IMG/VR virus record: IMGVR_UViG_2563366865_000004
Location: 1 to 38,371 of that record
Reading direction: 5' to 3' (one strand)
Origin: a virus
Taxonomy: Duplodnaviria; Heunggongvirae; Uroviricota; Caudoviricetes
DNA: 38,371 bases
This document shows positions 241 through 3,186 of the stretch, piece after piece (position 1 is the first letter of the stretch; each line of letters starts with the position of its first letter). The translations under genes and the position numbers were made by a program. Below the pieces are notes generated by a model that had not been told where the DNA came from, did not search any database, and saw only the letters and a program-made list of their open reading frames with translations.

Positions 241-3186
241 TTAGTGCTTCCCTTCTATTAAGTCTAACCTAGCTTTTATTCTTTCTATTTCTCTGCGCTG
301 CCATGCCGCCTCGATATAGAATAAGAGATCAGGTCTGACCCCCCATCTAGATCCTGCTGGCGTTATTTCAACGCGCTCAATGATGTCTTCCATTACCATC
401 ACTGGATTATCATCCTCATCAACAATGATGCTCCCGTCATTATCAGTCAGCGGCATTTCCCTTTGGCCAGTAATGACGTCATCATATACTGCGGGATAAT
501 CGTCATAGCAAAGAAAGGCATAGCGGCATGTTGTGCTTTCTTCTTCCATGAGTCCGTGAGAAATAAGAACATCACGAAGTTGCTGCGCGATTACACCATG
601 ATGTATCCTCGCCCCTTCTTCCCCCTTTATAGCGACAGCGTTCAGCCATTTATAAGCGATATACCTGACGTCACCCCAGGCATCCAGCAATGTTTCGTCA
701 GGAGAGACCGGCTCTGTCTTTAATGTTCCGTCACTGGTAACCACAGGATTGGAGCCAAGATAAACTATCGAGAACCTGTTTCCCGGACCACCAAGAGCAT
801 TTACATTATCAAGATAAGGTTTAACATCTCCGTTCTCAAAAAGATGTTCGAGTGCGTTATATACCGCGCGACGTGGAGTACTGCTTCCGGAACCATGCAA
901 CGTTATCATTGCACCATCTGCTGAAGACGTTGTTTCACCGCCGCTAACGATTAATCTCTGAGCGGTAACATCATCAGACGGTACTTTCTTCGCAATAATG
1001 GCGTAATTACCCTCAAGTTTGACTTCCGCGCGAACTTGTCCTGATGTACCTGCATGGACAGTCAGTGACTGGACGGCAACATCATCTGTGAAATCAACGG
1101 GTACAGGAACCGTCCTCACGCCTGACGTCGACATAAAAGTAGGAAGCGTTCTGTTAGGAGTGGCTCCGTAGACAAAATCCCTTGAAACAAATTCTTCCTG
1201 TTTAATTTTCACCCTGAAACAATACAAATCAGCCGGGTGACCATCGTGAACATAAGGATATTTTCTGTTGTTATCCCCTATGCTCCATGGGTTTAGAAAG
1301 TCTTCCCCACCGAAAATGTAGTACAGCCAGTTGTCTTTGATACAAACTGAACCAACACCAACCGCAGAGTTAACTATTCCGCCCTGATAAATCTGATCAG
1401 TAACATTAACCCACTCTACATTATCCAGACTCCACTCATTGACGTTAACTCTGGTCATAAATGTTCTTGGATAGTTTCCTGCATAACGGTTATCAGGTTC
1501 TCCTCCTTCCCACTCACCAAATGCGCGCTCACTGCCAAAAATAATCAGCTCATCGCCAACTTTGGCAAAAGGAAGGTTTGAGTGATGAACATTATTTGGG
1601 AAGCGAAGAGAATTCCATGATGTACCTAAATCAGAGCTTCTGTGCAATGAACTACCGGGTTGAGTACTTAATGTCCCCCTGGTCGTCAGATACAGAATGC
1701 CATCATAATATTTTACACATGGCTCAGATGCATTCGCCTCATATTCTGCAGGTATGCGTCTGCGAACAAAGCTACCAGGAGAACCGAAAGCATCAGAGAA
1801 ATAGAGTATCCCAAGCTCGCGTGGACCAATATCACCATTATGGTAGCCAACAGCAAAACTGTTATCGCTAATCGTCGCAAAACTGTGAATCTCAGTAACA
1901 GGAGTGCTTCCGTCAACAAAAGAAGGAATAGTTCCAAGACTGGTTTTTCTCCATGGTGACGAGTGAAATGATGTACCAAAACTCCAGTATCTACCCTCGT
2001 TATTCTGATCCACATCCTGGGTATTTTGCGTCGTAACTGTAAAAGTATTTTTATCAATAACAGTAGTCACCGTCATATTCCCGGTAACACCTGTAACACC
2101 AGAGTTTGAGAAGTTGACAAAATCACCAGCAAATAATCCGTGATCAGTAATGCGAATATAAGCGACTTGCTGATTTGCTGCTTTCGTTATACCACCATAA
2201 ACGCGAAGGCTGCGACTCATTGGGCGATCCCACAACTCTGCAACCTGCAGTTTATTTCCGCTCACGGTCCGCGTCTCAATTACAGCAAAAAGGCGATTTC
2301 TGACAACCCCCATACTCATGCAGTGATAGTTAACTGTGGGATAGTTTTCATGTAAATCTGTAAGCCATTCCGGCGTTGTCCAGGTCTTCCCGTCATCTCC
2401 TGAGCGAACCCATGCAACATGGAGGTTATTTACACCATGGCGGTCTCCAGCCATAAAAGGCGCATAGATGACATTGTCATATACAAACGTTTTATCCTGC
2501 GTCCAGGCGTTGTACCACGGTGTATCTGTAATTTTAAATAACTCTCCCTGGATAAAATCTTCAGAAACATAAAAAAGAGGCTGACCCGGTATTCTCTCAA
2601 ATAAAAAACGAGCATTTTTAAATCGACTGACATCTGGAAGAGTTGATACTTTAAAAGTAAGCCCTCGCCCATCTATCTTTTCACCACCTGTTGCAACAGA
2701 AAGTAATTCTGATAGAGCTGATGTATCATCATGAACACCATCACCAATAGCCCCCCAACCTCTTACATCATAACTGTCTCTCCATCTTGCTATCTGAAGT
2801 TTTGGGTATTTATTCGCTCCATCTGTGTCTTCTAATTGCTGCCGTAACTGATCAGGATCATACTTCAGCACATTAGGAAAATAGAACTGCTGCGCACCAT
2901 ACGCATCATAAACAGCCATAGAATGGCCTTGCACGGTAACGAATTTGGCAATCTGTCCGTTATATACCGGATATCCAGCAGCGTTAATGATTATTGGTTG
3001 CGAAACAGGAACGTGAGAACCGTCTTCATTCTCCACATAGACCTGAATCTGGTTTTCTGTATTTACAGGATCAGTGTCAATTTTACCGATATAAATTTTG
3101 CCATTGGCTACGGCTTTAAAAGAACGCGCCATAGTGAAGAGTTGCGAAGGCATACTCACTACAACATTGGCTGTAATGTCTGTCAT
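241..3186 (-). CDS. Tailspike protein, 981 aa: P22 gp9-like N-terminal head-binding domain, central sialidase-like domain with two Asp-box motifs, C-terminal intramolecular-chaperone-like domain (endosialidase-type, K1 capsule specific)
   Basis: N-terminus [42 protein letters not shown] closely matches remembered P22 gp9; Asp boxes SGDDGKTW and SSDLGTSW; C-terminal approx 150 aa resemble self-cleaving chaperone domains of endosialidases. Confidence 0.9.

Follow-up and report, generated by a model that had tools for sequence, protein, structure and literature searches.

What kind of tailspike begins like that of phage P22 but carries the motifs of a sialidase, and has such a protein been described before? 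The question is raised by a gene in a 38,371-nucleotide stretch of DNA from a tailed virus (Caudoviricetes; IMG/VR record IMGVR_UViG_2563366865_000004, positions 1 to 38,371), which was analysed as a whole and is called the window here. An earlier, sequence-only reading had proposed that positions 241-3186 encode a chimeric tailspike, in which a P22-type head-binding adaptor is fused to an endosialidase body with a self-cleaving chaperone tail. The coordinates were exact, and the strand, absent from that reading, is minus. According to the list of open reading frames (ORFs), 241..3186 on the minus strand is, with its stop codon, one unbroken ORF that encodes 981 amino acids (aa), and the calculated mass of the precursor is 109 kDa. 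The gene almost certainly encodes the tailspike, a self-cleaving K1 endosialidase, of a temperate podovirus of the P22 type that resembles CUS-3 and resides in an Escherichia coli K1 chromosome. The protein is already known, being the characterised tailspike of phage CUS-3. This prior description was missing from the sequence-only reading, as was a conserved neck between the adaptor and the body.

Identity and domain architecture of the tailspike

The window gene matches positions 2526-5471 of CP000711 over its whole length with 99.7% DNA identity. This record belongs to Enterobacteria phage CUS-3, which resides as a prophage in the E. coli K1 strain RS218, and the matching gene, siaK1, is labelled there with the product 'endosialidase tailspike protein' and the annotation 'GO:0016996 endo-alpha-sialidase activity [Evidence IDA] [PMID 16689790]', in which IDA stands for inferred from direct assay. 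The sequence-only reading had predicted specificity for the polysialic acid of the K1 capsule; because the gene is 99.7% identical to the IDA-annotated siaK1, this probable specificity is more than a prediction. CUS-3 SiaK1 (ABQ88383.1 / CAJ29292.1; Stummeyer et al. 2006, King et al. 2007) is the same gene as that in the window, and the two agree in length, domain order and neighbours, with ant upstream and neuO downstream. In a review (PMC5380687), CUS-3 CAJ29292.1 appears as a 109-kDa endo-N-acetylneuraminidase, with reference to Stummeyer et al. 2006.

The window and CUS-3 proteins are identical at 979/981 residues (99.8%) and differ by V9I and G767R. Since G767 also occurs in phage ZX5, and V9 in P22 and in phage Gally according to our alignments, both differences can be regarded as natural variants, and they presumably leave the function unchanged. 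Seven of the nine nucleotide differences between the two genes lie within a 10-nt patch (gene nt 24-33; window 3153-3163), whose sole effect on the protein is V9I. The patch looks like a short gene-conversion tract with another P22-like tailspike as the donor. Beyond these differences, the remainder of the prophage is a mosaic. Out of 5,426 complete E. coli genomes, 181 carry 80% or more of the gene, among them the K1 strains UTI89, IHE3034 and NU14, and RefSeq labels it in those genomes merely as 'phage tailspike protein'. The same tailspike is also found in a close relative, phage phiv205-1 (MN340231, 1-4239; 99.2% identical over aa 70-981), where it is split by a transposase gene at ~aa 70 and is a naturally inactivated copy.

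Domains were assigned with Pfam profiles at their curated cut-offs, by sequence matches to PDB chains, and by alignments with K1F gp17 and the ZX5 protein. What our analysis itself shows is the domain architecture, the conservation of residues, the near-identity with CUS-3 siaK1 and the synteny; for the enzymatic activity of the CUS-3 protein, the cleavage mechanism of the K1F endosialidase endoNF and the function of the head-binding domain in P22 we rely on the literature and on record annotations. All six expected Pfam domains were found in the right order, every one over its curated cut-off. The gene and its parts are as follows.

241..3186, minus strand: complete tailspike gene, orthologue of CUS-3 siaK1 (ORF list and DNA match to CP000711)
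2848..3186, minus strand: P22-type head-binding (virion adaptor) domain, aa 1-113 (Pfam Head_binding PF09008, E=2e-66, full profile length)
2752..2847, minus strand: neck or linker, aa 114-145 ([33 protein letters not shown]), without a Pfam domain; 53% identical to the equivalent segment of K1F gp17
2551..2751, minus strand: endosialidase N-terminal extension, aa 146-212 (End_N_terminal PF12218, E=3e-37; 60% identical to endoNF)
1201..2550, minus strand: catalytic six-bladed beta-propeller, aa 213-662 (End_beta_propel PF12217, E=1e-233; 70% identical to endoNF)
1969-2217, minus strand: beta-barrel inserted in the propeller, aa 324-406 (End_beta_barrel PF12195, E=1e-46)
736..1200, minus strand: stalk (triple beta-helix / beta-prism), aa 663-817 (End_tail_spike PF12219, E=1e-77), ending in the alignment where the mature endoNF chain 1v0e ends
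244..735, minus strand: C-terminal intramolecular chaperone domain, aa 818-981, ~18.7 kDa (Peptidase_S74 PF13884)

The sequence-only reading had assigned the first roughly 110 residues to the P22 gp9 head-binding domain, and this assignment holds, as the identity over aa 1-113 is 76% with P22 gp9 and 92% with Sf6 gp14. The tailspike chains of P22 and Sf6 in the PDB match only aa 1-118/127, in line with the claim that the rest of the protein is unrelated to the P22 endorhamnosidase. The endosialidase body is equally clear. The profiles PF12218, PF12217, PF12195 and PF12219 were each matched over their full length. Among PDB chains, E=0 was obtained for endoNF (1v0e and 3gvl, over aa 145-817) and E=3e-273 for the phi92 endosialidase 4hiz. 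The chaperone tail was recognized by the Peptidase_S74 'Chaperone of endosialidase' profile at aa 818-878 (40.8 bits against a cut-off of 22, E=2.7e-10), and its span beyond aa 878 was taken from the match of the endoNF stalk-plus-chaperone construct 3gw6 to aa 698-979 (E=2e-93 and 9e-95). The neck appendage of phage GA-1 (3gud) also matches the chaperone domain (E=3.5e-10). Domain by domain, the window protein is 55-70% identical to solved structures.

Active site, predicted self-cleavage and rival explanations

The mechanism can be approached by comparison with endoNF, the gp17 of phage K1F (PDB 1v0e, 3gvl, 3gw6). Homology to K1F extends over aa 114-980 of the window protein with ~62% identity, and the two proteins share the neck, the N-terminal extension, the propeller with its barrel, the stalk and the chaperone. 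The residues and motifs considered below are located as follows.

2437-2439, minus strand: catalytic H250, equal to K1F H350 and identical in the alignment
2380-2403, minus strand: Asp-box 1, SGDDGKTW, aa 262-269, aligned with SGDDGQTW of endoNF
1900-1920, minus strand: 7-aa insertion FVDGSTP, aa 423-429, in the propeller, relative to endoNF (alignment)
1723-1725, minus strand: catalytic E488, equal to K1F E581 and identical in the alignment
1678-1680, minus strand: catalytic R503, equal to K1F R596 and identical in the alignment
1615-1638, minus strand: Asp-box 2, SSDLGTSW, aa 517-524, aligned with SRDIGQTW of endoNF
1525-1527, minus strand: catalytic R554, equal to K1F R647 and identical in the alignment
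733-735, minus strand: Ser818 of the cleavage dyad, equal to endoNF S911
718-720, minus strand: Lys823 of the cleavage dyad, equal to endoNF K916

Glu581, Arg596 and Arg647 form the active-site triad of the K1F endosialidase (PMC2955717), and the whole triad is identical in the window protein. The two sialidase Asp-boxes noticed in the sequence-only reading are both present and both conserved in endoNF. In shuffles of the window protein, the pattern S.D.G..W occurred with a mean of 0.008 matches, and at least two copies were obtained in 0/20,000 shuffles. Besides the FVDGSTP insertion, the window protein differs from endoNF by a longer acidic loop in the chaperone domain.

Autoproteolysis of the endosialidase chaperone requires a serine-lysine dyad, with the cut at the serine, and the GVIAQ motif is required for trimerisation (PMC3742440). 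The dyad, at positions i and i+5 at the start of the domain, is invariant across the window protein, K1F and ZX5, and the GVIAQ motif of the window protein lies at aa 864. In the K1F record, the mature gp17*, which was defined by experiment, ends at 910 and the released 'intramolecular triple-beta-helix chaperone domain' begins at 911. This boundary maps to Thr817|Ser818 of the window protein, and T910, S911 and K916 of K1F all map to identical residues. Because the K1F record splits the mature and C-terminal peptides at 910|911, we predict that the window tailspike is cleaved at Thr817|Ser818 during maturation and that the chaperone is released after the trimer has folded, as the sequence-only reading had supposed in general terms for the C-terminal domain. 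The serine position of the dyad is occupied by alanine in 3gw6, which we take to be a non-cleaving mutant made for crystallisation.

These features can be assembled into a plausible pathway. The 109-kDa precursor would trimerise via its C-terminal S74 domain (aa 818-981), which would drive the folding of the triple-beta-helix stalk. The ~19-kDa chaperone would then cut itself off at Thr817|Ser818 by means of the Ser818/Lys823 dyad, leaving a ~90-kDa mature trimer, which the head-binding domain (aa 1-113) would dock on a P22-type tail hub. On the cell surface, the beta-propeller body would bind the alpha-2,8-polysialic acid of the K1 capsule and cleave it endolytically with the Glu488/Arg503/Arg554 site, and the degradation of the capsule would let the virion tunnel through to the outer membrane. 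Indirect evidence for the proposed endolytic cleavage comes from the IDA annotation of the 99.8%-identical CUS-3 protein and from its listing as an endo-N-acetylneuraminidase (PMC5380687).

The P22/Sf6-like N terminus could instead suggest a P22-like endorhamnosidase or another O-antigen-specific tailspike, whose sialidase motifs would have arisen by chance. The tailspikes of P22 (gp9), Sf6 (gp14) and HK620 indeed have a homologous head-binding domain and the same gene position, after ant in the late region. However, the bodies of these tailspikes are O-antigen endoglycosidases of the right-handed beta-helix type, lack a cleaved chaperone domain and show no similarity to the window protein past ~aa 127, whereas the window body matches endosialidase profiles with values down to E=1e-233 and its pair of Asp-boxes was not reproduced in any shuffle. 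The identity as a P22-type endorhamnosidase is thus refuted by the profile matches, the PDB matches and the shuffle test, and we assign no probability to any O-antigen-specific variant of it. A finer question is whether the preferred substrate might be a variant of polysialic acid, either the O-acetylated K1 capsule or the K92-type polymer with alternating alpha-2,8/2,9 linkages. Immediately downstream of the gene lies neuO, whose product, a phase-variable polysialic acid O-acetyltransferase, would make the O-acetylated form. Fine specificity could also differ because the body is just ~62% identical overall to K1F endoNF and ~60% identical to the phi92 endosialidase, and because of the 7-aa insertion in the propeller. 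The direct-assay record of endo-alpha-sialidase activity for the CUS-3 protein, the K1 specificity of phage CUS-3 and an active-site triad with the same residues as in endoNF all speak against such a preference. We consider a variant substrate unlikely, and it would refine rather than replace the explanation as a K1 endosialidase.

Even less probable, in our view, is that the prophage is defective and the gene an inactive relic, whose product no longer folds, cleaves itself or cuts polysialic acid. The mosaic nature of the prophage relative to CUS-3 would fit such a relic, and the transposase interruption at ~aa 70 of the phiv205-1 copy implies that decay of this tailspike gene does happen. 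In the window, however, the ORF is intact through all 981 codons, every catalytic and cleavage residue is conserved, and the 2/981 residues that differ from the assayed CUS-3 protein are both natural variants in other tailspikes. Returning to the CUS-3-type endosialidase tailspike, two observations call for some caution, namely the two substitutions relative to the assayed protein (V9I, G767R) and the mosaic of the surrounding prophage, in which the head genes are not of the CUS-3 type. Nothing that contradicts it was found.

Junctions and module exchange

The sequence-only reading saw in this gene an illustration of receptor-binding-domain swapping on a conserved virion adaptor. This is correct, and the CUS-3 protein itself served as the published example: the 2017 review (PMC5380687) describes the swapping of tailspike modules between P22-like and T7-like phages, in which CUS-3 has a conserved N-terminal domain in common with HK620, Sf6 and P22, and its catalytic domain in common with K1F, where the N terminus is T7-like. 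In our comparison, K1F endoNF carries a T7 gp17-type N-terminal adaptor of ~213 aa where the window protein has the P22 head-binding domain, and the similarity to K1F begins at aa 114, immediately after that domain. The tailspike of the P22-like phage Gally (OV696608, 2501-4900; 799 aa) is 91% identical to the window protein over aa 1-159, neck aa 114-150 included, and no endosialidase or S74 domain was found in it. Because both Gally, with another body, and K1F, with another adaptor, have the neck, it can be viewed as a linker common to different bodies and adaptors. The neck (aa 114-145) is a plausible and likely recombination joint.

A second junction was found in the tail fibre of phage vB_EcoP_ZX5 (QTH80017.1; MW722083 1803-4922), which matches gene nt 522-2914 (aa 174-971) of the window with 99.46% DNA identity in one ungapped block with sharp ends. 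Its endosialidase body, chaperone and Pfam domains are the same as those of the window protein, whereas its N-terminal adaptor (~190 aa) is wholly different and its last ~10 residues have diverged. ZX5 belongs to a different genus and is an epsilon15-like, temperate Uetakevirus with an integrase. These features of its record led us to drop the alternative description of ZX5 as a lytic T7-like K1 phage. The pattern seen in ZX5 recurs in the unannotated records KM389252 and KM389435. A literature search for a paper linking ZX5 to an endosialidase found none.

As the ZX5 cassette is 99.5% identical in DNA and has sharp borders, it may point to a very recent transfer across genera. We tentatively propose, at somewhat less than even chances, that the aa 114-150 neck serves as a universal recombination joint and that the ZX5 cassette was transferred very recently across genera among E. 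coli K1 prophages, with a second joint in End_N_terminal (aa ~174). The fine structure and the recency of the module exchange may be absent from the literature. The ZX5 cassette is nevertheless a further example of a known phenomenon, and the additions to the known picture consist only of finer junction maps and are minor.

Prophage surroundings and significance

The synteny of the tailspike region in the window matches P22 and CUS-3. Upstream of the tailspike, a P22-type antirepressor is encoded at 3287-4210 on the minus strand (Pfam P22_AR_N/C). A strong terminator-like hairpin of 8 pairs (5 G-C) with a T-run behind it was observed at 3250-3269 on the minus strand, past the antirepressor gene and ahead of the start codon of the tailspike, and it falls within the 'bsq1' boundary sequence of the CUS-3 record. 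This position suggests that expression of the tailspike needs antiterminated late transcription. Downstream, the 5' end of neuO occupies window 1-87 on the minus strand, with its ATG at 87..85. A perfect tract of the heptanucleotide AAGACTC begins two bases past this ATG, and its 12 copies, counted by Tandem Repeats Finder (TRF), run off the left edge of the window. The polysialic acid O-acetyltransferase gene of CUS-3 carries a phase-variable 'poly-psi' repeat (PMC3046976), and the tract in the window is this repeat of neuO. Promoter-like sites were noted just upstream of neuO at 132..104 and 175..147 on the minus strand.

Further into the prophage, the window aligns with virion genes of CUS-3, HK620 and Gally, including the portal, the gp4 and gp10 homologues and the injection proteins, and ~59% of window 3200-28000 aligns to CUS-3. 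The block of portal, scaffold, coat and gp4 genes at ~12.3-17.3 kb gave no alignment to CUS-3, and P22-like prophages of O26 and further E. coli strains match it with 99.6% identity. Because this head block is not of the CUS-3 type, the virion-gene backbone that carries the CUS-3 tailspike/neuO module in the window is a different one. Overall, the window is closest to the phage records vB_EcoP-611R6, HK620 and Gally. At the other end, the window reaches ~220 nt (38152-38371) past the position equivalent to CUS-3 attR. A small ORF lies beyond that position, of 66 aa from an ATG at 38171, or of 71 aa (38156-38371) from an upstream TTG start in the ORF list. Its only Pfam match was a sub-threshold one to HTH_17, and NCBIfam profiles gave no match for this ORF or for the antirepressor. 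It may resemble the excisionase-like gene of KplE1/CPS-53, the neighbouring element at argW. No tRNA gene was detected across the entire window.

The biology of this tailspike was established in 2005-2013 with the CUS-3 protein and its K1F homologue. Endosialidase tailspikes serve as reagents for removing polysialic acid, and the S74 chaperone domain is an ancestor-like model for the self-cleavage of the eukaryotic transcription factor MYRF. Rediscovery of the tailspike in a prophage of a K1-type E. coli brings no new knowledge of it, and the value of the result lies in annotation: the label 'phage tailspike protein' can be upgraded to 'CUS-3-type endosialidase tailspike, P22-type head-binding domain, self-cleaving S74 chaperone domain'. 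Such endosialidase tailspikes decide which phages can attack the E. coli K1 that causes neonatal meningitis.

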